Part shown: piece by piece, positions 39-16,499 of the stretch
Layout of the letters: every line of letters starts with the position of its first letter
Numbering within the stretch: the stretch's first letter is position 1
The notes under the pieces: generated by a model
The model's input: the letters and a program-made list of their open reading frames with translations, nothing else
The model's database searches: none
What the model was told of the DNA's origin: nothing
Assembly (NCBI GenBank): GCA_902511025.1
Contig: CABXDP010000002.1
Location: forward strand, 1,466 to 65,465
From: an uncultured Gammaproteobacteria bacterium
Lineage (GTDB): Bacteria; Pseudomonadota; Gammaproteobacteria; PS1; Pseudothioglobaceae
Reading direction: 5' to 3'
DNA: 64,000 nt
Made by a program: the position numbers and the translations under genes

Positions 39-2339
39 CTACATTCTAACCCTAGTCTTCTCAGGATCATAAAATGGAAATCTGACTACCTTTGCAGGTA
101 ATCGTTTTTGATGTCCATCTAATTTTCCTACCTCAACTTCAGTGCCAATCTCTGACTCTGAAATTGAAATCCTACAAAGCGCAATGTTCTTTTTAAGTAT
201 TGGCGAACGCGTTGCACTTGTAATTACTCCAATTTGTTGTTTTCCAATATACACACCATCTCCATGGAGTGCAACTTCGTTTCCATCTAATTCTAACCCA
301 ACCAAAACTCTTTGTGGAGAATTCTTGCGAAGAATTAAAGATTCTTTTCCAGAAAAATCATCCTCTTTAGTTATAAGAGGAACTGTAAATGAAATGCCTG
401 CTTCAAATGGATCTGTCTGGTCACAGAACTCATATCCAGCAAAGATTAATCCCGCTTCAATTCTCAGCATATCAAGCGCATTAAGGCCTAGAGGGCAAAT
501 TTCAAACTCTTCACCAGCCTCTTCAATTGTATCCCAAACTGCCTCACAATCTTTAGGGTGTGCGAACACTTCATAACCAAGCTCACCAGAATATCCAGTT
601 CTTGAGACCATGACAGGAATACCAAACTCACCTCCAATTCGCCCTATTGTGAAACGAAACCACTTAAGGTCCTCAATCGAAGTTTGCAGTTTTGGAGTCC
701 AAATAATTTTAGAGAGCGTCTCTCTACTCTTTGGACCCTGAACGGCAACATTATGAAGCTGGTCAGTCGAAGACTTGACTCGAACATCTAAACCTTTATC
801 GTCTGCGATTTTTCTAAGCAACTTGCCACCATCATCAGAGCCACCAATCCATCTAAAGTTATTGTCATCCATTCGGAAAAGTGTCCCATCATCAACCATG
901 CAGCCATTCTCATAGCACATCGCGGAGTAAACGACCTGTCCAATTGCAAGCTTGCGGACATCTTTTGTAATGGCATACTGCATCAGAGCTTCAGCGTCTT
1001 GACCGTACACTTCAAATTTTCTAAGAGGGGCAAGATCAATCATAACAACGCCTTCACGGCACTGCCAGTACTCTTTGATTGCGCCTAAATTTGTATACTC
1101 AAGGGGCAACCAATAGCCATTATAGTTATCAAAGTTTTTTGTTAATTTAGAAGTATTTTTATGAAAACCGGTTTCTTTAGTCATAGTCGGAATGGATTGA
1201 GGGTCAGGCCTAAAAGCCGTTGCCGATGAAAAATTATTGGACTTATCATAAATCCTAACATGAATATCAGTTGGATTCCAGCCGTTTGCAGAGGTTGTAT
1301 CATCTGGGCACGCTGATGAAACGCATACGAGGTCATCTACGGCCCTTAAAAGCACAAAATCTCCTGGCCTAGACCAAGAGACATCTGAGGTTAGAGAATG
1401 GCACTCTTCAATTGCTGTATTAAAAAATAGGTTAACCGCAGCCCAATTTCTTCTGGGTTTAACTCCATATTCAGCAAGAGACGAATTAAAATTATCTGTA
1501 CAGCTAATGTGTCCTGGAAAGCCGCGATCTTCATAATACTTAGCGTTGCATGCCAGACCGAAAGTGTCATGACGACAGACTGTATCCTGAATGACTTCCA
1601 CTAAGGGAATCGAATTCTGATTATAAAACTTGTCGTGGGTCCCTGGAGCAGGATAACTTGCAAGCATCTGCGAGCGAGTCACAGTAGGATCAAGGCATAG
1701 CTCCTCATTGTTATTTAAATCTTCAACTAAAAACGCCTGAAAATCTGAGCACTGCTGACCCTCTACATCAATAATTTGAATGTATTGACCCGCCTTTACT
1801 TTATAAGCAACCGCACTAGAATCTTTGACTCGAATCTCCTTAGAGGGTTTTGCTAGAGGCTCAGGTAGCCGATCAGAAGGATTTGTAGGGTTTTTCCTTT
1901 GAACGTTAATCAAAATTTCAGTGGGTGAGTTCTGCTGATCAACCTCCATTGGACCGCCCTTTGCATCAAACACACACAAGAGGTCATGATTAATATCAAA
2001 TGATTGCCTTGTATCTGCTGGACTTGAATCTTGAAATAACTCAGCAGTATCAATATCTTTTGGTTTAATTTTATTTGAATCAAGAATTGCTCTAAGCATT
2101 TCAGAGCAGTTATCTAGAGAAACTTTATTAGAGTTATTGCTAGAATTTGTCTTCCAATTTAACGAGGACAAGGCAGAAGTTTTTTTAGAATCAAAGGCAA
2201 GTACACTGCACTTTTGATCACCTTCAACATCAACTATTTCTACTGAATCGCCTTTTTTTAAATCAATTGAAATCGCTTCACCGCCATGAATCTGATAGGT
2301 TTCACAATCACCATCATATTTAATATTCGAAACTCTCAT
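39..2339 (-). CDS. tdm: Trimethylamine N-oxide demethylase (DUF1989 + GcvT aminomethyltransferase domains)
   Basis: N-terminal DUF1989-type region with Cys motifs RHDTFGLAC / HISCTDNF / SACPDD, and a C-terminal GcvT fold (SRTGYSGELGYE, LRIEAG, FYDPEKTR). This architecture is characteristic of Tdm, and the gene adjoins gmaS-mgsABC. Confidence 0.85.
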   Translation of the reverse strand: MRVSNIKYDGDCETYQIHGGEAISIDLKKGDSVEIVDVEGDQKCSVLAFDSKKTSALSSLNWKTNSSNNSNKVSLDNCSEMLRAILDSNKIKPKDIDTAELFQDSSPADTRQSFDINHDLLCVFDAKGGPMEVDQQNSPTEILINVQRKNPTNPSDRLPEPLAKPSKEIRVKDSSAVAYKVKAGQYIQIIDVEGQQCSDFQAFLVEDLNNNEELCLDPTVTRSQMLASYPAPGTHDKFYNQNSIPLVEVIQDTVCRHDTFGLACNAKYYEDRGFPGHISCTDNFNSSLAEYGVKPRRNWAAVNLFFNTAIEECHSLTSDVSWSRPGDFVLLRAVDDLVCVSSACPDDTTSANGWNPTDIHVRIYDKSNNFSSATAFRPDPQSIPTMTKETGFHKNTSKLTKNFDNYNGYWLPLEYTNLGAIKEYWQCREGVVMIDLAPLRKFEVYGQDAEALMQYAITKDVRKLAIGQVVYSAMCYENGCMVDDGTLFRMDDNNFRWIGGSDDGGKLLRKIADDKGLDVRVKSSTDQLHNVAVQGPKSRETLSKIIWTPKLQTSIEDLKWFRFTIGRIGGEFGIPVMVSRTGYSGELGYEVFAHPKDCEAVWDTIEEAGEEFEICPLGLNALDMLRIEAGLIFAGYEFCDQTDPFEAGISFTVPLITKEDDFSGKESLILRKNSPQRVLVGLELDGNEVALHGDGVYIGKQQIGVITSATRSPILKKNIALCRISISESEIGTEVEVGKLDGHQKRLPAKVVRFPFYDPEKTRVRM

Positions 2340-2440
2340 TAATTAAAAACCCCTTTTAATAATGTTTGAGTATACATAGAATTACTTAAAGATTATTTTG
2401 AATAAACTAATTCCCGTACTCAAAAGATTTTTTTAGTTTA

Positions 2441-2517
2441 TTCAGCACCTCAGGGGGTGAGGTGCCGAAAAACCAAGGAGAGAATTTATAGAGAGTGCCT
2501 CTTTAAAATCTCCCCTT
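2441..2517 (-). terminator. Two tandem stem-loops between the mgs operon and tdm; the first on the minus strand is a likely terminator
   Basis: Minus strand: AAGGGGAGATTTTAAAGAG-GCACT-CTCTATAAATTCTCTCCTT followed by GGTTTTT, then TTCGGCACCTCA-CCCCC-TGAGGTGCTGAA. Confidence 0.55.
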
Positions 2518-2535
2518 TTAATTCACTTACCCAAA

Positions 2536-2922
2536 TTAAAATTTACGGTAAGCGTTATTTAGATCAACCATTGGATGATTTTCTGACATTTGGAACTTGA
2601 TTAAAAGCTCACGCGCAATCATGTCTCTCTCTTGCTGATTATCAGGCAGTTTAATGGTGTCAGGAATCGTCACCCAGCCGTTGATGTTTCTATCAAAAAC
2701 AGCCGCTTGATCACCCTCATATCCCATATGAATATCCTCTAACCAGTTCAGATCTTTCCATCCCATTTTGTCTATATACTCCTGTAAGAAAGGGGTGATA
2801 AACTTAAGGTCAGGAACGAGATTTACGTCATATCGATAACCAATATGCTGACCAATGTCTTTTTCGCGATCAGTTCCTAGGCCATCATCTCCAACAACAA
2901 ACTCTTCTTCTTTATTGCTCAT
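2536..2922 (-). CDS. Hypothetical 128-aa acidic protein, last gene of the gmaS-mgsABC operon
   Basis: Start reassigned to the ATG at 2922 (MSNKEEEF), which follows an AGGAGA RBS just after the mgsC stop. The upstream extension in the ORF track overlaps mgsC. Confidence 0.8.
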   Translation of the reverse strand: MSNKEEEFVVGDDGLGTDREKDIGQHIGYRYDVNLVPDLKFITPFLQEYIDKMGWKDLNWLEDIHMGYEGDQAAVFDRNINGWVTIPDTIKLPDNQQERDMIARELLIKFQMSENHPMVDLNNAYRKF

Positions 2923-2936
2923 AATTTCTCCTATCC

Positions 2937-4274
2937 TTAAAAGCGTGTCAAATCTGGACGGCCAACGGTGTGCTGAGAACCTGCAATAGGGACTTGAGCA
3001 CATGCTGAGGCTTCCATCGTTAAAGCAGCAAGATCTTCTGGCTCTAGTGAGTGAATATTCGTTTTACCACAAGCACGCGCCATCATCTGGCACTCAATGG
3101 CTAAAGTATGTAAAAAGTTGTAAACTCTCTCTGAAGCTGCATCAGGGTCTAGTCTCTGTCTAAGCACTGGGTCTTGAGTTGCAACACCCACTGGGCAGCG
3201 ACCTGTATGACAGTGATAACACTCGCCCGCGTTGACGCCCATTTCATTAGGGTAATCCGCTTCAGGTATATCTCTGTTACAGTTAAGCGCCATAAGAGAA
3301 GCGTGTCCAATCGCAACCGCATCTGCACCAAGTGCGACCGCTTTAGCGACGTCACCACCATTTCTAATACCACCAGCATAGACCAGTGAAATTCTTCCTG
3401 TCATGCCAACATCATCGATTGCTCTTCTTGCTTGACGAATTGCAGCGATCCCAGGAACACCTGTCTCCTCAGTAGCGATATGAGGTCCAGCAGCTGTACC
3501 ACCTTCCATTCCATCGATATAAATACTGTCACAACCCGTTTTTGCAGCCATACGAACGTCGTCGTAGACACGAGCAGCACCCAGCTTCAATTGGATAGGA
3601 ATTTGTCCATCCGTTGCTTCACGAATCTCTTCAATTTTAAGAGCCAAATCATCTGGACCTAACCAGTCTGGGTGTCTAGCAGGCGATCTTTGGTCAATAC
3701 CCGCTGGAAGCGATCTCATCTCAGCAACCTGGTCTGTTACTTTTTGTCCCATCAAGTGTCCACCCAGCCCCACTTTACAACCCTGTCCAATAAAGAACTC
3801 AACACTGTCAGCTAGACGTAAATGCTGAGGGTTGAAGCCATAGCGTGACTGAATACACTGATAAAACCACTTACTTGAGTAGCGTCTCTCATCAGGAATC
3901 ATTCCTCCCTCACCAGAGCAAGTCGCTGTTCCAGCCATAGTTGCGCCCCGAGCCAGAGCTGTTTTAGCTTCATAACTCAGCGCTCCAAAACTCATACCGG
4001 TAATGTAAATGGGTATGTCGAGCTCTAGTGGTCTAGGTGCTTCAGGACCGATAATGGTTTTTGTTAAACACTTTTCTCTGTAGCCTTCAATAACAAAGCG
4101 CGTCAGAGTACCTGGCATAAAAGTCAAGTCGTCCCATGTTGGAATCTTTTTGAAAAGAGAGAAACCTCTCATTCGGTAACGTCCCAAATCAGATTTAATG
4201 TGGATGTCATCCATCACACCTTTAGGAAAGATAAAACTTTTACCTAGTCTGTTTTTTTCATCTATATCACTCAT
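2937..4274 (-). CDS. mgsC: N-methylglutamate synthase subunit C (FMN-binding glutamate synthase family)
   Basis: GMSFGALS, SGEGG, GIDQRSP.RHPDW, CYHCHTGRCPVGVATQDP Fe-S motif; operon with mgsA/B and gmaS. Confidence 0.85.
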   Translation of the reverse strand: MSDIDEKNRLGKSFIFPKGVMDDIHIKSDLGRYRMRGFSLFKKIPTWDDLTFMPGTLTRFVIEGYREKCLTKTIIGPEAPRPLELDIPIYITGMSFGALSYEAKTALARGATMAGTATCSGEGGMIPDERRYSSKWFYQCIQSRYGFNPQHLRLADSVEFFIGQGCKVGLGGHLMGQKVTDQVAEMRSLPAGIDQRSPARHPDWLGPDDLALKIEEIREATDGQIPIQLKLGAARVYDDVRMAAKTGCDSIYIDGMEGGTAAGPHIATEETGVPGIAAIRQARRAIDDVGMTGRISLVYAGGIRNGGDVAKAVALGADAVAIGHASLMALNCNRDIPEADYPNEMGVNAGECYHCHTGRCPVGVATQDPVLRQRLDPDAASERVYNFLHTLAIECQMMARACGKTNIHSLEPEDLAALTMEASACAQVPIAGSQHTVGRPDLTRF

Positions 4275-4307
4275 AATTTTTCCTTTATTTAATTTGTTAA
4301 AGTCCGA

Positions 4308-5150
4308 TTAAAGAATAAGTTTTTTCTCTGCAGGCTCAAGATTATCGTAGTTCCATAGTGTCTTACCAGAAACATACTTTTGCATCTTTTCTACGCCATT
4401 TGGAGCTTTCATATCATAATTACCAAGCTTTTCAGTTAAGTAGCGTACGTCTAGCTCTGTCATCTCACCAGGAACACAGTCCACTCCAAGCTCTTCAACT
4501 TCACCGCCCACATAGATCGTGCCGTCATACATTGAATCACCTAAGTTCATACCTGCATCTCCAAGCACAATCATTCGACCACGCTGCATCATAAAGCCTG
4601 AGAAAGCGCCCGTTTTACCACCAACAATAATGGTTCCGCCTTTTTGGTCAATACCTGTTCGAGCACCAACACTCCCTTTACATACGAGGTCTCCACCACG
4701 AATTGCAGCACCAAACGTTGAACCGGCATTACCATCAATAACGACCGTTCCAGCCATCATGTTTTCAGCGCATGACCAGCCTACTCGTCCCTTGATATGA
4801 ACATTAGGCCCATCAATCAGGCCACAACCAAAGTAACCTAAGCTGTCTGAAAAAGTTAAATTAAGACGATTCAAAATACCTACGCCAACACCATGCCTTG
4901 ACATTGGATTGTCAACGGTAATATTACCGATACCGCTTTCCATTAATGCTCTGATCTCACGATTAATTTCTCTTGGCGTCATATCTAAAGCATCAATCGT
5001 AGCGCTCTTGTTAGTGTCTACTTCAAACGAATGAAAATATGTCAGGTTTGCACTTTCATCAATCGAGAAAAATTTCTGCTGCGTTCTTCCTTTGAGCTGC
5101 TCCTGATGGAGCCCCATCTCATAAGACGAATCTTTTTTTAGTTCTGCCAT
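4308..5150 (-). CDS. mgsB: N-methylglutamate synthase subunit B (GXGXG beta-helix domain)
   Basis: Repeated GxxGxxxG motifs (AENMMAGTVVIDGNAG, GFMMQRGRMIVLGDAG); lies between mgsA and mgsC. Confidence 0.85.
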   Translation of the reverse strand: MAELKKDSSYEMGLHQEQLKGRTQQKFFSIDESANLTYFHSFEVDTNKSATIDALDMTPREINREIRALMESGIGNITVDNPMSRHGVGVGILNRLNLTFSDSLGYFGCGLIDGPNVHIKGRVGWSCAENMMAGTVVIDGNAGSTFGAAIRGGDLVCKGSVGARTGIDQKGGTIIVGGKTGAFSGFMMQRGRMIVLGDAGMNLGDSMYDGTIYVGGEVEELGVDCVPGEMTELDVRYLTEKLGNYDMKAPNGVEKMQKYVSGKTLWNYDNLEPAEKKLIL

Positions 5151-6076
5151 ACTTTTACCTCTCCGTGATAAGGGTCAAATGTTTCAATTCGGTGATCAAA
5201 TAATGTCCTGATTGCGACCTCCTCTGAAGCCAAAGCAATCATATCATCACCCTCGTATACAACCATTGGTTTGGCGGCCATAACATCCTTAGCCATACCC
5301 AGTTGATCTTTTGTCGCTACTAGATATGTAAATACACCATCTAAATATTCAACAGAGTCTTTCATAGCTGACTCTAAATCTTTTCCCTGGCTCATTCTTT
5401 CTGCAATATAAACTGCTATGAGTTCTGAGTCGCAGTTCGAAGAAAAGCGATGACCTTTAAGTTCTAGTGCGCGTCTGTTGGTCCAGTAGTTCGTTAGCTG
5501 GCCGTTGTGAACTACAGCAACGTCACTAAATGGGTATGCCCAGTAAGGGTGAGCAGAACGAATATCGACATCTGACTCGGTTGCCATCCTTGTGTGACCA
5601 ATTCCATGTGTCCCATTAAATTGATTCAGTCCATACTGCTCAGAAACAACTGCAGCATCGCCAAGGTCCTTGATTAATTCGAGTGAGTTACCAATAGATA
5701 GAATCTCAACACCCTCTATGTCTTCAACGAAGTCAGCTAACTTTTTCATATCGCCTGAGAATTGAATCTCATAGCGATGCGAGTACTCAGTCGCGCTTTC
5801 TTTCTTGACAATCTTAGCGCCCAGATCATCCATTCTAGAATTCACAGCAGCAACCCTATCTTCAATTGCCGCATGTATATCAAAACTTCCCTCAAGATCA
5901 GCTGCCTCAGCGACCTTGAACCTTACTACATTATTGCCATTATCTTCGCCATACATAGCGTACCCAGTTGAATCTGGCCCCCTATGCTTCAAAGCCTGCA
6001 ACATGGCTGTCATTTGCTCACCAATGTTGACATCTTTGCCGGCATTCTTATGAATAATTCCTGCTATTCCGCACAT
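5138..6076 (-). CDS. mgsA: N-methylglutamate synthase subunit A (class II glutamine amidotransferase)
   Basis: MCGIAG N-terminal nucleophile, HRGPDSTG, GHTRMATES, VHNGQL, DSE. Confidence 0.85.
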   Translation of the reverse strand: MCGIAGIIHKNAGKDVNIGEQMTAMLQALKHRGPDSTGYAMYGEDNGNNVVRFKVAEAADLEGSFDIHAAIEDRVAAVNSRMDDLGAKIVKKESATEYSHRYEIQFSGDMKKLADFVEDIEGVEILSIGNSLELIKDLGDAAVVSEQYGLNQFNGTHGIGHTRMATESDVDIRSAHPYWAYPFSDVAVVHNGQLTNYWTNRRALELKGHRFSSNCDSELIAVYIAERMSQGKDLESAMKDSVEYLDGVFTYLVATKDQLGMAKDVMAAKPMVVYEGDDMIALASEEVAIRTLFDHRIETFDPYHGEVKVWQN

Positions 6077-6102
6077 AAAATAATCTCCCTTTCCCTGAAA
6101 AT

Positions 6103-6122
6103 TGCCCGCCGTTAGGCGGGCA
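6103..6122 (-). terminator. Intercistronic GC-rich hairpin between gmaS and mgsA (mRNA stabiliser or partial terminator)
   Basis: TGCCCGCC-gtta-GGCGGGCA perfect 8-bp stem; only a short T-run follows on the minus strand. Confidence 0.5.
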
Positions 6123-6149
6123 CTCTAAATTAACTTAAACGAAACTAGC

Positions 6150-7628
6150 CTAAGGCAAGCAGTCCAAATAAGTTTCAATATCCCAATCTGTAACCGTGTG
6201 ATTGAAACGCTCCCACTCATCAGTCTTGTAATGGTGGTAAACCTTATACATCTCATCTGGCATAGCCGATTTGATGACCTCATCATTTGCAAGCTCAGTC
6301 ATTGCATCACCAAGCGACATGGGTAACTTCTTAACATCTTTACCAGCCTCCATCGCTTCGTAAATGTTTCTCTCTTCAGCTTCACCTGCATCGATATTGT
6401 TATCAATTCCATCACCCATCGCTTTTAATAGAGCGGATCCCATTAGGTATGGATTAACCATAGAGTCTACAGAGCGATACTCAAAGCGGCCTGGAGCCGA
6501 AACGCGAAGCGCACAAGTTCTATTTTGGTAACCCCAGTCAGCAAAGATTGGAGCCCAAAAACCTGTATCCCATAATCTTCTGTATGAGTTCACTGTTGAA
6601 GAACCAATAGATGTCAGTGCTGGTAAATGCTTAATCACACCGCCGATTGAATTCAGACCAATTGGACCCGGCATTTTTTCATCAATGGATGGATCCGGCA
6701 TGAATGTATTTTCACCACCCTCTTTATAAGTAAAGACACCTGGCATTCCAGGCAGCTCTCCATCGCCTGTAGCAATTTCTGGATGAAAAACATCTTTACC
6801 ACCCTTCCACAAAGACATGTTATGGTGACAGCCCGAAGCCGAAACGCCCATAAATGGTTTACTCATAAAGCAAGCAATCAATCCAAACTCACGAGCAACC
6901 TGAGCACAAATTTGACGATAAGTCGTTAAACGATCCGCGTTCCTTAGAACGTCGTCGAACTGAGTATTAAGCTCTAACTGGCCCGGTGCATCTTCGTGGT
7001 CGCCCTGAATAATATCCAGACCCATCTGCTCAGAGTACTCAATAACCTTCATGAAAACTGGACGAAGCTCTTCAAATTGATCGATATGGTAACAGTTCGG
7101 CTTTGTTACTCCGCCATTTGTACCGCCATCTTCACCACGCTTAAGCCACATCATTTCGGGCTCAGTACCGCAGCGCATATCTAGACCATACTGGTCTTGG
7201 AATTCTTTGTGCAGTCTGTAGAGATTTCCTCTGCAATCAGAGGTTAATGCTGCGCCCGGGTTATCGCGCTCTTCACGGTTTCTGTAAAGTCTACAAAAAA
7301 CCCTAGCAACTCTCTTGTCCCATGGAAGTTGGCAGAACGTATCTGGGTCAGGGATACCGACCAGTTCTGATGATTCTGGACCATAACCGATGTAGCTTCC
7401 GTGGCGATCAACGAATAAGTTTGCTGTTGAGCCATAAACCAATTGAAATCCTTTCTCAGCTAATCTTTCCCAGTGTCGAGCAGGAATACCTTTTCCTACA
7501 ATACGACCGGTAACTGATACAAATTGATAATATACATATGTAACTCCTAAAGCATCGATTTTAGCTTTTACTTCTTTTACAAGTTTATCGCGTCCAGGTT
7601 CATTAACGTGTTGTTCTAAATCTGTCAT
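6150..7628 (-). CDS. gmaS: Gamma-glutamylmethylamide synthetase (glutamine synthetase family)
   Basis: GS fold (GTEPE, DHEDAPGQLE, FMSKPF, SGCHHNMS, NRTCALR, EYRSVD) with KPNCY and FWAP (Trp in place of the GS Glu flap) as in GmaS; first gene of the mgsABC operon. Confidence 0.8.
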   Translation of the reverse strand: MTDLEQHVNEPGRDKLVKEVKAKIDALGVTYVYYQFVSVTGRIVGKGIPARHWERLAEKGFQLVYGSTANLFVDRHGSYIGYGPESSELVGIPDPDTFCQLPWDKRVARVFCRLYRNREERDNPGAALTSDCRGNLYRLHKEFQDQYGLDMRCGTEPEMMWLKRGEDGGTNGGVTKPNCYHIDQFEELRPVFMKVIEYSEQMGLDIIQGDHEDAPGQLELNTQFDDVLRNADRLTTYRQICAQVAREFGLIACFMSKPFMGVSASGCHHNMSLWKGGKDVFHPEIATGDGELPGMPGVFTYKEGGENTFMPDPSIDEKMPGPIGLNSIGGVIKHLPALTSIGSSTVNSYRRLWDTGFWAPIFADWGYQNRTCALRVSAPGRFEYRSVDSMVNPYLMGSALLKAMGDGIDNNIDAGEAEERNIYEAMEAGKDVKKLPMSLGDAMTELANDEVIKSAMPDEMYKVYHHYKTDEWERFNHTVTDWDIETYLDCLP

Positions 7629-7815
7629 TTAATCTCTCCGAAAAAATAAAAAAAATCTTTTTAAGATTTGCCCCCTAGTAGACTTTATTTAGATTCGTAA
7701 TTAATTAACCCAAATAAAAACCAGACAATTCACTGATATATAACTGATAAATACCTCCAAACATGATTCAATTTTATGACCCTAAAAAAGTAGGGTTTCA
7801 GCAAATTAATATCGG

Positions 7816-7845
7816 AGTATACTCCTATTGATATTCCATTGTCAA
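7816..7845 (-). promoter_or_regulatory. Sigma70-type promoter for the gmaS-mgs operon
   Basis: Minus strand TTGACA-N18-TATACT, about 190 nt upstream of the gmaS start. Confidence 0.55.
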
Positions 7846-7992
7846 GAAATTTTTTTTATTTTAAAGAAATTAAATAAAGCCTTGATTTTCTTCTATTTTT
7901 TGTCAAAAAACAAAAAAAAAAAAACTGGAAAGTTTTTATCTTTAGGAAGATTTTTTTTGACTATAAATCGACTAGATAGTTAATGATTTCTA

Positions 7993-8643
7993 TCAATCAG
8001 ATGCATTAGAAGAGATAATCGTCAGAAACTGGCACTCATCACTGATGATCTTTTTTGGGCCATGCGGAGTGTCAGAATCAAAATACAGCGAGTCCCCTTT
8101 TTTGAAGTGGTAGACCTTGTTCCCATAAAAATAATCCATCTGCCCCTTGAGCATGTAGATGAACTCTACTCCCTTATGCTGAAATTCAGGAAACTCATAG
8201 TCTCTTGACGTTATTGTAATTAAACACGGCTCAACCTTTAAAGATCCACCAACCGTATGCCCTAATAATTGATAGTGTCGACTCTCATCTGAGCCTGCTC
8301 TCTCTATCGTTAATCCTTTACCTGACTTGATGAAAGTCGGCTCAACATCTTTATCATGCTGCTTAAATAAGGAGGTGATAGAGATATTGAGCGCGTGACA
8401 GATCGACTGTATTGTTTTAAGTGATGCACTAATCTGGCCGTTCTCTATTTTTGAGAGCATACTGGCTGAGAGTAGCGACTGTTTTGATAGCTGCTGAAGA
8501 GTAACGCCAGCATTCTTTCTTGCCATACGCACCTGCTTGCCTATAGAGGCCTCTAACTGCTTATCACTTCCAAAGCTTGGAAGATTTTTATTGATAATGG
8601 AAACGCCCTTCTCTTTAGGCATTGGTTTTTTTGTAGCTGCCAC
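7993..8643 (-). CDS. XRE-family transcriptional regulator with C-terminal cupin domain
   Basis: HTH_3 (TLQQLS..SASMLSKIENGQISASL) plus cupin (FQHKGVEFIYML..GDSLYFDSDTPH); upstream of gmaS. Confidence 0.9.
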   Translation of the reverse strand: MAATKKPMPKEKGVSIINKNLPSFGSDKQLEASIGKQVRMARKNAGVTLQQLSKQSLLSASMLSKIENGQISASLKTIQSICHALNISITSLFKQHDKDVEPTFIKSGKGLTIERAGSDESRHYQLLGHTVGGSLKVEPCLITITSRDYEFPEFQHKGVEFIYMLKGQMDYFYGNKVYHFKKGDSLYFDSDTPHGPKKIISDECQFLTIISSNASD

Positions 8644-8653
8644 AATACAATAA

Positions 8654-8688
8654 TTTACTTAGAATAAAAAAAATTATACTACAAGGAA
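8654..8688. promoter_or_regulatory. Putative tandem operator (TTMCT-N3-AGGAA) upstream of the XRE regulator
   Basis: tttacttagaataaaaaaaattatactacaaggaa aligns without gaps to the amt upstream site at 16541-16575. Confidence 0.45.
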
Positions 8689-8735
8689 AATTACTAGATT
8701 GAAGAATTGAACATTAACGAATGAGAAATATTGAA

Positions 8736-9752
8736 TTAAACTCTCAAGCGTCTACTTCTTCTCTGCTTAATGGGCTTGGAATCGTCGCCCTGAAAGATTA
8801 ATTTTGATCCCTCAGACATAAAACCAACCCTGTCTTCAATTTCTTGGAGTGTTGGCGGCGGCGAAACACTATGCCGATCCATTGCTTTTCGCATAGCCCT
8901 GACATGATCAAAACTGGTTCCGCAACAACCCCCAATAATCTTGGCGCCAGAGTTCATGGCAATCTGCACATACCGCGACATGAGCTCTTCTGTTCCTGAG
9001 TACATAATACTGCCATTCACAAACTCTGGAATGCCGCAGTTGGCTTTTGAAATGACAATCGTTCCAGGGTCAACATTTTTTGAAATATCATTAATGGTTG
9101 CCAACAGATCTGGCGCTCCAATTCCGCAGTTAGCTCCAAACCCACTCAGATTTAAATCCTTAGATCTTTTGGCAAGGTTGGAGGGGGTAATACCCATCAT
9201 CGTTTTTCCTGCAGTATCAAAACTCATTGTTGCGCAGACTGGAAGCCCAATATCCTTGACCGCTTCCATTGCAGCTTCTAACTCTTCCATAGCGTACATG
9301 GTCTCAAGCCAGAGCACATCAACGCCTCCCTCTGCAAGACCCTCCGCTTGAGCTTTAAAGGCATCCGCTGCCTCCTTCGGAGTCATCAGCCCATGAGGCT
9401 CAATCATCTCACCTGTAGGTCCCATTGCTCCTGCAACAATGACCTGTCTGTCAGCCTGATCCGCTACCTCTCTGGCAATCTGTCCTGCTGCTTTGTTGAG
9501 TTCAAAAACCCTCGTTTCAAGATTATGTAATTTGAGTCTGAAAGATGTACCACCAAAACTATTGGTTAAGAATAAATCAGATCCAGCATCAACAAACCCT
9601 TGATGTAAAGCGCGTATTCGATCTTTGTGATCTACATTCCATGGCTCCGGAGGATCACCAGTCTCGAGACCCATCCCAAACAAGTTCGTTCCAGTTGCCC
9701 CATCAGCCAGAATGTGGCTTTTTTCCTCAAGGATTTTTAAAAAATTATTCAT
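8736..9752 (-). CDS. bmt: Betaine-homocysteine S-methyltransferase / homocysteine S-methyltransferase domain protein
   Basis: LADGATGTNLF, TNSFGG, GANCG, IIGGCCGT Zn motifs; stand-alone domain with a basic RRSRR tail. Confidence 0.8.
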   Translation of the reverse strand: MNNFLKILEEKSHILADGATGTNLFGMGLETGDPPEPWNVDHKDRIRALHQGFVDAGSDLFLTNSFGGTSFRLKLHNLETRVFELNKAAGQIAREVADQADRQVIVAGAMGPTGEMIEPHGLMTPKEAADAFKAQAEGLAEGGVDVLWLETMYAMEELEAAMEAVKDIGLPVCATMSFDTAGKTMMGITPSNLAKRSKDLNLSGFGANCGIGAPDLLATINDISKNVDPGTIVISKANCGIPEFVNGSIMYSGTEELMSRYVQIAMNSGAKIIGGCCGTSFDHVRAMRKAMDRHSVSPPPTLQEIEDRVGFMSEGSKLIFQGDDSKPIKQRRSRRLRV

Positions 9753-14840: not shown

Positions 14841-14882
14841 AAAAAAAGGGCAGTATTTACATACCGCCCTTTTCGTTTTTTT
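14841..14882. terminator. Bidirectional rho-independent terminator
   Basis: A7-GGGCAGTAT-ttac-ATACCGCCC-TTTT between convergent genes. Confidence 0.8.
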
Positions 14883-14897
14883 ACTTTTTACAGATTT

Positions 14898-15077
14898 TTA
14901 CTTGTAGTGATCCTGCTCGTCAGAGTTGCCTTTAACTAAGACTCCTACTAACATTACCGTAGCAATCACTGTCCACCAGCCAGCGGCTGATGAACCAGCA
15001 CCGATATACATGCCCATGTCCATCCAAGCACCATCAGCATCCATAAGCTCTGTAAAAGATTCAGCAAAATATCCCAT
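14898..15077 (-). CDS. Unannotated 59-aa single-pass membrane protein co-transcribed with amt
   Basis: MGYFAESFTELMDADGAWMDMGMYIGAGSSAAGWWTVIATVMLVGVLVKGNSDEQDHYK*; AAGGAG RBS; starts 18 nt after the amt stop and ends just before the terminator. Confidence 0.8.
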   Translation of the reverse strand: MGYFAESFTELMDADGAWMDMGMYIGAGSSAAGWWTVIATVMLVGVLVKGNSDEQDHYK

Positions 15078-15095: not shown

Positions 15096-16499
15096 TTAAG
15101 ATTCAGATTCAGGGCTCGCCATACCTTGAGGGTATGCCTGTGCAGGAACTTTCACTGCATCAAGTCCTCTTTCTTGAACTGCGTCTGGGATACGTAACAT
15201 GCCAGCTTTGTTCACTATCCAAGACACAATGTATCCTGGAACAAAACCTAGTAAGAACATGACAACTGCACCGACAATTTGGCCAAATAGGCTAATTGCA
15301 ACAGTATCTTCTGGAGCAAAAGCGCCAAGTCCTGGAACACCAGAACCCAGAATACCAAGCATTACAACGCCAAATAGTCCAATCGTTCCGTGAACCGTAA
15401 CACAACCAACAGCATCATCGATACCAAGACCCTCTAGCCAGTCCGCACACGGCTTAAGAATAATACCAGCAAGGATAGAAACAGCTATAACCGTTGAACC
15501 AAAGTACACATCAAGACCCGAGGCTACAGAAATAATACCTGCTAGACAGCCAGACATCATCCAGAAAGGATCTCTAGTCATAACCCAAGCACCAATAATA
15601 CCGCCAGCAGCAGCTAGAGGAACGTTAAATGCTAGTGCCGAAAGTGTCATTGGAGTACCATAAATGGTAGTCGCTCTGTCACTATACCAACTCCAACCTT
15701 CTCCAGGCAGAATGATACAAGCCATTAGGAATCCGAAGAATCCAACAATAATCAGCATTAAGCCAGTTACTGTAAGTGGCATGTTGTGACCTGCCAGATG
15801 ATTCGCAGAGCCGTCAGCGTTGAATTTTCCTACACGTGGGCCCAAGTTCAATAGAACACCCAGCGCGAAGAATCCAGCGACAGCGTGCACAAGACCAGCA
15901 GCACCAAAGTCGTGATAACCAAACTCAGTGACTAACCATCCGTCAGCGTGCCATCCCCATGCCGCTGCAATACCCCATGCGGCGGTACCTAGCACAACCG
16001 CACAGATTACAAAACCTACGGTTTGTATTCTCTCGATTAGTGCACCAGAGGCAATCGACGCAGTTGTTGCCGCGAATAGAGCAAAAGCACCCCAGAATAC
16101 GCCTGACGCATTGTCACCCATATTTGGTCCCATGTACTGAGCAGAATCGCCCCAGGCCCATGCGATAGCATTTGCATACTCTAGACCTGATATCTCCATA
16201 TAGCCGGCACCAGCACTAAAGTCTAATGGCCAAGTTGGCAGGGCAAAGTAGAACCACCAACCAAATAGGTACCATGCAGCAATTGTAAACGCGAACGCGA
16301 GTAAATTTTTAACACCCGATGACAGTACATTCTGCAAGCGAGTAGCACCCATCTCATAGAGAAGGAAGCCAGCATGAATGAGAACCATCAAAGGAATTGT
16401 TACGTAATAGTACGCCTCAGCAAACATCCTGTTTGTGACCTCGGCAGCACCTTTTATAGCGGCTACTTCAGCCGTTAAAGCTAATATTTGATCTTCCAA
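15096..16499 (-). CDS. amt: Amt/Mep/Rh-family transporter, atypical (possible methylammonium transporter)
   Basis: SGALIERI, YHDFGAAGLVH, LGPRVGKF, IDDAVGCVTVHG (twin His retained); TTG start after AAGGAG. Confidence 0.9.
   Translation of the reverse strand: MEDQILALTAEVAAIKGAAEVTNRMFAEAYYYVTIPLMVLIHAGFLLYEMGATRLQNVLSSGVKNLLAFAFTIAAWYLFGWWFYFALPTWPLDFSAGAGYMEISGLEYANAIAWAWGDSAQYMGPNMGDNASGVFWGAFALFAATTASIASGALIERIQTVGFVICAVVLGTAAWGIAAAWGWHADGWLVTEFGYHDFGAAGLVHAVAGFFALGVLLNLGPRVGKFNADGSANHLAGHNMPLTVTGLMLIIVGFFGFLMACIILPGEGWSWYSDRATTIYGTPMTLSALAFNVPLAAAGGIIGAWVMTRDPFWMMSGCLAGIISVASGLDVYFGSTVIAVSILAGIILKPCADWLEGLGIDDAVGCVTVHGTIGLFGVVMLGILGSGVPGLGAFAPEDTVAISLFGQIVGAVVMFLLGFVPGYIVSWIVNKAGMLRIPDAVQERGLDAVKVPAQAYPQGMASPESES

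Follow-up and report, generated by a model that had tools for sequence, protein, structure and literature searches.

A 64,000-nucleotide stretch of DNA from an uncultured gammaproteobacterium of the family Pseudothioglobaceae (contig CABXDP010000002.1 of GenBank assembly GCA_902511025.1, positions 1,466 to 65,465; hereafter the window) encodes a divergent member of the Amt family of ammonium transporters, in which the surroundings of the ammonium-binding sites have been rewritten and the conduction core has been kept. We propose, with slightly better than even confidence, that this protein is the pore subunit of a two-part transporter for protonated methylated amines—monomethylammonium and probably dimethylammonium—whose predicted second subunit is a small membrane protein encoded by the next gene.

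Conserved changes around the ammonium sites

The only domain detected in the window Amt is Pfam Ammonium_transp (PF00909), matched at 173.4 bits (cut-off 23.2) over model positions 8–399. The protein stays below the curated cut-offs of every NCBIfam Amt model, scoring 178.9 bits against 343.3 for TIGR00836 (amt), 41.9 against 657 for NF007947 (AmtB) and 150.1 against 514 for TIGR03644 (marine-subtype Amt). An AlphaFold (AF2) model, computed with an alignment of 47 relatives as input, reached a predicted local distance difference test score (pLDDT) of 90.2 and a predicted template-modelling score (pTM) of 0.91. Foldseek searches with this model returned Amt/Mep/Rh structures exclusively, with a probability of 1.00 for AmtB, Amt-1, Mep2 and Rh50, which share the multi-helix Amt fold; target-normalised template-modelling scores (TM-scores) were 0.77–0.86 for the top-ranked bacterial and archaeal Amts and about 0.66–0.75 for Mep2 and Rh chains. 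The TTG start codon lies 8 nt 3′ of an AAGGAG sequence. Residues 1–25 (16499–16425, minus strand) contain no signal peptide; in the model, an amphipathic N-terminal helix runs continuously into the first transmembrane helix (TM1), a feature kept across the family described below.

Residues were mapped using HMMER alignments to solved Amts and MAFFT alignments with Escherichia coli AmtB, which agree, and are numbered here as in mature AmtB. In TM6 the canonical motif GWFGFNAGS is replaced by GFFGFLMAC, a span that includes the positions of W212 (S2 site), the gate residue F215, N216 and S219 (S1 site). The changes within the motif are W212F, N216L, A217M, G218A and S219C, and F213 and F215 are Phe as in AmtB; outside it we found F103A, Q104F, A162G, G163A and T273A, to which a group-contrast scan added L208I and M23I as family-specific. 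In AmtB the contrasting positions lie in the periplasmic vestibule, the D160 loop and the pore. The ammonium-site residues S219, W212 and F103 are replaced by C261, F254 and A138 of the window protein, and around the outer S1 and inner S2 sites hydrophobic or shifted residues have been substituted in concert (F103A, Q104F, A162G/G163A, W212F, N216L, S219C, T273A). The twin histidines H168 (H205 in the window protein) and H318 (H370), D160 (D197), W148 (W183) and both gate phenylalanines, F107 (F142) and F215 (F257), are all retained, leaving the conduction core intact. Misalignment as the origin of the motif differences was ruled out, because the alignments pass through this region gap-free, pinned by invariant columns at D160, H168, G211, G214, F215 and H318. 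Two AmtB mutants bear on these changes: S219A takes up more methylammonium and more ammonium (PMC10433425) and W212F remains active (PMC3647058).

The changes define a family that is unnamed in the literature and that we delimit by A103/F104, F212, L or Y216 and C219, together with the retained core residues. This signature is present in the window protein, in 60/60 relatives from the same subclade (A) and in 6/6 from a sister subclade (B, about 40% identity), which has Tyr at 216. All 60 aligned subclade-A proteins, at 52–98% identity, have A103, F104, F212, L216 and C219 invariant or nearly so with the conduction core intact, which argues against chance drift. In twenty canonical or sensor Amts the motif stays GW(F/Y/I)GFNxGS almost throughout, and the family signature is missing. 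In a phylogenetic tree, a long branch with a Shimodaira–Hasegawa-like approximate likelihood ratio test (SH-aLRT) value of 100 lies between the family and canonical Amts, among them the genus's own glnK-linked Amt, and the family is old. In an exhaustive search made without profiles, few 50%-identity clusters scored far above canonical Amts.

A genome scan recovered 80 loci whose encoded proteins are 52–98% identical to the window Amt, chiefly from Rhodobacterales (Roseobacter group) but also from Pseudothioglobaceae, Hyphomicrobiales, Geminicoccaceae, Granulosicoccaceae and further groups; the signature spans two proteobacterial classes and the Tyr-216 form extends to a Gaiellales actinobacterium. 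The family is abundant in ocean metagenomes, where single 90%-identity clusters contain hundreds of sequences. Names carried by nearly identical proteins assign the organism of the window to Candidatus Pseudothioglobus, among the heterotrophic SUP05/Arctic96BD-19 relatives. The Amts of Pseudothioglobus nest inside an alphaproteobacterial, Rhodobacteraceae-dominated clade, which suggests that the gene was gained by horizontal transfer. Their sister in the tree (L032) comes from an alphaproteobacterial bin, and since its GmaS and MgsC are likewise 70–85% identical to those of the window, transporter and pathway may have been transferred together. More of the motif has been lost in a degenerate branch (Marinimicrobia and Pseudomonadales bins), one member of which is without H168. 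Subclade-B (Tyr-216) and subclade-A (Leu-216) copies also occur in tandem (L052:7880-11386; L085:7178-11266; L068:8274-11368); as these adjoin, each with its own small partner gene, they hint at two substrate specificities.

These results bear out most of what an earlier, sequence-only reading of the window had claimed about the protein. GFFGFLMAC stands exactly where that reading placed it; the pore histidines and Phe gate are retained in both sets of alignments; W212F, N216L and S219C are all present, with A217M and G218A in addition to its list; the effect it gave for S219 substitution holds for AmtB S219A; the structural comparison with AmtB that it proposed yields an Amt fold at a target-normalised TM-score of about 0.8; and the hydrophobic rewrite proves to be conserved as a signature of the family. 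Loss of the motif Trp is true of the window Amt (GFFGF) but not of most family members, in which the Trp has moved one position along to 213 (GFWGF), giving GFWGFLMAC as the commonest subclade-A motif.

Gene neighbourhoods, genome co-occurrence and a predicted partner protein

Genes for methylated-amine enzymes (tdm, gmaS, mgsABC, dmmDABC or mgdABCD) lie within 10 kb of amt at 59 of the 80 family loci, in many gene orders. Where at least 5 kb was available on both sides, 44 of 54 loci contain such a gene. The nearest such gene is separated from amt by a median gap of 279 nt. Planktotalea arctica IMCC9565 has the order tdm ... gmaS-mgsCBA <> amt-small open reading frame (ORF)-dmmDABC, followed by an XRE-cupin gene and mgdDCBA, an arrangement common to most Rhodobacterales (Roseobacter-group) loci; other lineages have amt-tdm, amt-gmaS, mgdABCD-amt or gmaS <> amt. 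In the complete genome G022 a subclade-B gene follows gmaS-mgsABC, with dmmDABC nearby, and the Gaiellales member (39–40% identity) lies beside a GAF-PucR regulator gene, gmaS, mgsABC and mgd. In the degenerate branch, amt is the last gene of operons encoding a dimethylformamidase-like amidase and an amide-type ATP-binding cassette (ABC) importer (L093:1-9633 and a JGI contig); these amidases presumably release dimethylamine.

Co-occurrence was assessed in 400 evenly drawn Pseudomonadota genomes, at least 80% complete and chosen without regard to neighbourhood; relatives in this sample are not independent, and raw counts are given. Ten genomes from six families carry a family member (589–744 bits, with a clear gap to all other scores). 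GmaS (TIGR03105, above cut-off) was found in all ten carriers and in 35 of the other 390 genomes (about 9%; 36 with one sub-threshold match), and Tdm in seven carriers and 16 of the other 390; amt and gmaS lie within 25 kb of each other in eight of the ten. Within the genus of the window, the divergent Amt and the window-type gmaS are concordant in 16 of 18 genomes: both are present in 13 genomes besides the window's own, both are absent from three and they are discordant in two fragmented assemblies. The three genomes without either gene still have a canonical Amt or are very incomplete assemblies.

The sequence-only reading had expected methylated-amine linkage, had proposed a phylogeny and a gmaS co-occurrence check, and had named clade members unlinked to methylamine genes as an outcome that would speak against it. 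The long branch does set the family apart from canonical Amts, linkage recurs in many independent gene orders and every carrier in the 400-genome sample has GmaS; locus linkage, co-occurrence in that sample and concordance within the genus all point away from an unlinked clade.

The gene directly downstream of amt encodes a 59-aa single-pass membrane protein. A hidden Markov model (HMM) of this small protein matched within 250 nt downstream of amt in 74 of 78 loci, subclade B included; in the remaining four the small gene is present as an extended (longer) ORF call. The HMM matched nowhere else in the loci, and the protein belongs to no Pfam family. Partners across the family (L003–L089) are 54–82 aa long, with one transmembrane helix, a near-invariant Trp and a Glu after the helix; in the degenerate branch, too, an 84-aa ORF lies downstream of the Amt gene. 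Modelling of the Amt–partner complex gave an interaction prediction score from aligned errors (ipSAE) of 0.80 (runs 0.77, 0.82 and 0.80) against 0.00 for the best control; 58 of 80 solved complexes attain a mark of 0.80, as do 2 of 110 mismatched pairs, a rough guide here as our own alignments served as input. The runs share at least 89% of contacts, with partner pLDDT of at least 72, and place the Trp18 region and helix of the partner against Amt residues 71–78, 115–128 (a family-specific loop), 159–165 and 434–450. The models support binding of the 59-aa protein to the Amt, and we predict that it is a second subunit. A G+C-rich hairpin flanked by T and A runs beyond the small gene is, from its sequence, likely to be a bidirectional terminator ending the amt-small gene operon; a simple promoter/terminator scan did not list it and returned no promoter upstream of amt.

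Genomes of the genus usually encode two Amts, the divergent one and a canonical one (about 407 aa, about 320 bits) beside a PII gene. There is no PII gene next to the window amt, and PII genes do accompany the canonical Amts of G007, G001 and G022, as is typical, though not obligatory, for canonical Amts. As this glnK-amtB pair lies elsewhere in the same genus and related family (G007:C1:415647-417194; G022:C1:632701-634294; G001:C62:49-1595), it is the canonical Amt that has the PII partner and the divergent Amt that has the small membrane protein, and ordinary ammonium uptake is already covered.

Upstream of amt stands a 35-nt operator-like word that includes an 8-bp inverted repeat, CTTGTAGG-N12-CCTACAAG. 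Allowing up to two mismatches, the word occurs at exactly two sites in the 847-kb assembly, before amt and before a gene for an XRE-cupin transcription regulator; a control pattern gave no matches in the same assembly. Both sites are kept in the genus: at the amt site of the complete genome G007 a two-sided change preserves the repeat, and the XRE-cupin site is identical in G007 and has one mismatch in L006. Relatives of the XRE-cupin protein (40–47% identity) are located in Roseobacter-group amt-dmm clusters, and the protein is a candidate regulator of amt and of itself. As RNA, the amt-site word folds at z = −2.2, so the repeat could equally be an RNA hairpin; the amt leader and terminator region, scanned against Rfam, gave nothing above chance (best E = 0.096). 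The shared operator of the sequence-only reading thus stands for amt and the XRE-cupin gene, but the methylated-amine genes of the window lie about 6.5 kb from amt and are not in the same operon.

Those genes form an island (Table 1) that likely encodes users or producers of the transported amines and that has the same layout in G007 (L088). The window also contains a betaine-homocysteine methyltransferase gene, the region from tdm to this gene being 39–9752. A 155-aa ORF following mgsC is without a Pfam or NCBIfam family; because it recurs after divergent-type mgsC in other genomes at 62–92% identity (L066, L076, L085, L088), it is a conserved extra member of this pathway variant. On a different contig, the window's genome also encodes a canonical TIGR03105-type GmaS (676 bits) and another glutamine synthetase (GS)-like gene (G000:C5:2836-8541); this small genome thus has two types of GmaS, a situation also reported for SAR11. 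Four 91–99% complete genomes of the genus (G007, G001, G003 and G011) gave no match for DmmC (PF11927), although tdm is present; a dimethylamine ‘bottleneck’ like that of SAR11 seems to exist in this genus as well.

Table 1. Positions in the window of the divergent amt gene, its sequence elements and the associated genes.
Feature	Position	Strand	Description	Basis
Divergent Amt-family gene	15096..16499	minus	467 aa, TTG start	PF00909 match, AF2 model
TM6 motif GFFGFLMAC replacing GWFGFNAGS	15717..15743	minus	residues 253–261	HMMER and MAFFT alignments
59-aa single-pass membrane protein gene	14898..15077	minus	starts 18 nt after amt, own AAGGAG site	
G+C-rich hairpin with T and A runs	14841..14872		between small gene and convergent PhyH gene	read from sequence
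Operator-like word TTCCTTGTAG-N18-AAGTAAA	16541..16575	minus	about 45 nt upstream of amt start	
Second operator-like word copy	8654..8688	minus	upstream of XRE-cupin gene, overlaps TATAAT box	
XRE-cupin transcription regulator gene	7993..8643	minus		
Methylated-amine island	39..7628	minus	tdm, unknown ORF, mgsC, mgsB, mgsA, divergent gmaS	same layout in G007
tdm	39–2339			Tdm NF053776, 1122 bits vs cut-off 1100
Unknown ORF	2536–3003	minus	155 aa, after mgsC	
Divergent gmaS	6150–7628		492-aa product	

Substrate and direction of transport

Transport of methylated ammonium explains these results best, because the conduction core is intact, W212F is tolerated in AmtB and S219A raises methylammonium uptake. 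It is favoured further because hydrogen-bonding and bulky residues at S1 and S2 have been lost in concert, and because the gene is tied to enzymes that consume or produce monomethylamine (MMA) and dimethylamine (DMA) in a genus with a separate glnK-amtB pair. Such a transporter would supply the GmaS/N-methylglutamate pathway with amines from seawater. Without Ser and Asn as hydrogen-bond partners, and with the bulky F103 and W212 replaced, the sites would have room for methyl groups and a weaker preference for NH4+, and the cation would be bound, deprotonated and passed along the twin-His pore, with the membrane potential as drive, as in AmtB. The small subunit would pack on TM2/TM4, the family-specific periplasmic loop and the C-terminal tail, and the XRE-cupin regulator would set expression through the shared operator.

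Several points weigh against this proposal. Canonical Amts already carry methylammonium, and a dedicated paralogue is not strictly required. The size of the pocket is argued purely from residue identities, and we infer both the substrate (MMA, DMA or ammonium) and the direction of transport. About a quarter of the loci are not beside methylated-amine genes: some of these lie on short or truncated contigs and others are real, as in Roseovarius, where a tandem B-A pair stands beside unrelated genes. In the window itself, sucAB and a gene for a PhyH-family dioxygenase separate amt from the island, about 6.5 kb away, and 35 GmaS-positive genomes of the 400-genome sample are without this Amt. Finally, SAR11_1310, an Amt of Candidatus Pelagibacter ubique HTCC1062 with a comparable neighbourhood, was observed exclusively in nitrogen-replete cells and has been proposed as an ammonia exporter (Smith 2013, PMC3870248).

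The strongest competitor, though unlikely, is a channel for release (or recapture) of ammonia/ammonium tied to methylated-amine catabolism, which would vent surplus NH4+ from demethylation. Methylamine-degrading Rhodobacteraceae do release ammonium to diatoms, with amt among the co-occurring cluster genes (PMC7574528), and our locus linkage and 400-genome co-occurrence fit such a channel equally well. It leaves unexplained, however, the family-wide hydrophobic replacement of the NH4+-coordinating Ser/Asn and of the aromatic cage; NH3 exits cells readily and a canonical Amt is present; and the degenerate branch is tied to amidases yielding dimethylamine, not ammonia.

Somewhat less probable again is a mainly outward flow of methylated amines, with export of dead-end DMA where Tdm is present without a DMA monooxygenase. 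This is conceivable because DmmC was not found in the four near-complete genomes despite tdm, mirroring the gap that Lidbury et al. describe for SAR11; a dmmD mutant builds up DMA in its medium (PMC5520151), and the amidase-linked branch would likewise make DMA inside the cell. However, most Rhodobacterales loci have amt directly upstream of, and on the same strand as, dmmDABC in organisms that consume DMA; the electrogenic mechanism of Amt proteins favours cation entry at negative membrane potential (AmtB; review PMC10433425); and the genus has gmaS, which needs a supply of MMA.

We give still less credence to a non-transporting sensor (transceptor) that detects ammonium or methylamines and signals to the cluster regulator. 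By sequence and fold, the best solved-structure matches are indeed the sensor Amts Ks-Amt5 (6eu6) and Sd-Amt1 (8qpf, 8qj3), and a dedicated regulator and operator are present. Yet a sensory role is unlikely because the protein has no fused signalling domain, ending about 20 residues past the usual C-terminal region; moreover, its identity to sensor Amts (22–24%) is hardly above that to AmtB (21–23% in the Foldseek matches), the twin His, D160 and Phe gate are all retained, and the XRE-cupin protein has no membrane segment to suggest docking. An ordinary ammonium importer, with lineage drift behind the odd residues and nitrogen-regulon clustering behind the linkage, would agree with the intact core and with annotation as an ammonium transporter in every source, but is very improbable given a signature whose constancy over 52–98% identity, across two proteobacterial classes and, in its Tyr-216 form, in Gaiellales indicates selection, given the coexisting canonical glnK-amtB pair, and given that carriers in the 400-genome sample are exclusively GmaS-positive.

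Significance and comparison with known systems

A sizeable share of marine dissolved organic nitrogen consists of methylated amines, from which climate-active aerosols form. At seawater pH over 99% of MMA and DMA is protonated, and both are nanomolar in the sea; enzymes of methylated-amine catabolism (Tmm, Tdm, Dmm, GmaS, Mgs, Mgd) and an importer for trimethylamine N-oxide (TMAO) are already known. Our literature searches found no paper naming a membrane route for MMA and DMA, and searches for a methylamine-specific bacterial Amt returned methanogen permeases and generic Amt work only. The family offers a concrete candidate for this missing channel of marine bacteria. More broadly, there is a little less than an even chance that an unrecognised two-subunit family, an Amt-like protein with a 54–82-aa partner, is the missing high-affinity route for MMA and DMA (perhaps also trimethylamine) in the Roseobacter group, Pseudothioglobus/SUP05 relatives, Granulosicoccus and possibly SAR11, having shifted from NH4+ to methylated ammonium via a handful of pore-site substitutions. 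The family would provide a natural experiment on Amt selectivity, since a few defined S1/S2 substitutions can be exchanged between AmtB and this protein, and its partner, standing where other Amts have GlnK, would be an accessory subunit of a new kind. In annotation, members of the family should no longer count as markers of ammonium uptake in metagenomic and metaproteomic studies.

Some members may already have been drawn. An ‘amtB/amt’ is drawn or listed in the methylated-amine clusters of Rhodobacteraceae, Ruegeria pomeroyi among them, labelled just as an ammonia/ammonium transporter and with its sequence uncommented (Lidbury 2017, PMC5520151; Zecher 2020, PMC7574528). It lies between mgsA and dmmD, the same position as in the Roseobacter-group members found here, and by that position most probably belongs to the same family. 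Our literature searches found no paper on the residues, partner protein or substrate of this cluster Amt, and supplement and full-text searches gave nothing usable on expression of SPO1577/SPO1578 in R. pomeroyi.

SAR11_1310 is a phylogenetic outlier located among glnT/glx (GmaS/Mgs-like) genes and preceded by a structured 5′ leader (PMC3870248); compared by description only, the window amt has a similar neighbourhood and a leader that also contains a conserved hairpin or operator. AmtA of Corynebacterium glutamicum prefers methylammonium, with high affinity and driven by membrane potential (summarised in PMC3870248), and, again by description, is a precedent for a methylammonium Amt paralogue, with no reported link to methylamine catabolism or to a small subunit. 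Ks-Amt5 (6eu6) and Sd-Amt1 (8qpf/8qj3) carry fused histidine-kinase or GGDEF domains, whereas the window Amt has no signalling domain; the sensor-like long proteins in our alignment keep motifs of the type GWFGFN(G/C)GS where the window Amt has GFFGFLMAC. With E. coli AmtB and other canonical Amts the window protein shares the fold (TM-score about 0.8), H168/H318, D160, W148 and F107/F215, and presumably the same bind–deprotonate–conduct mechanism. It differs from AmtB in being about 23–26% identical and far below curated cut-offs, in its S1/S2-site substitutions, in extra periplasmic loops and in having an N-terminal helix in place of a signal peptide; and where canonical Amts partner GlnK, the window Amt is paired with a 59-aa membrane protein.

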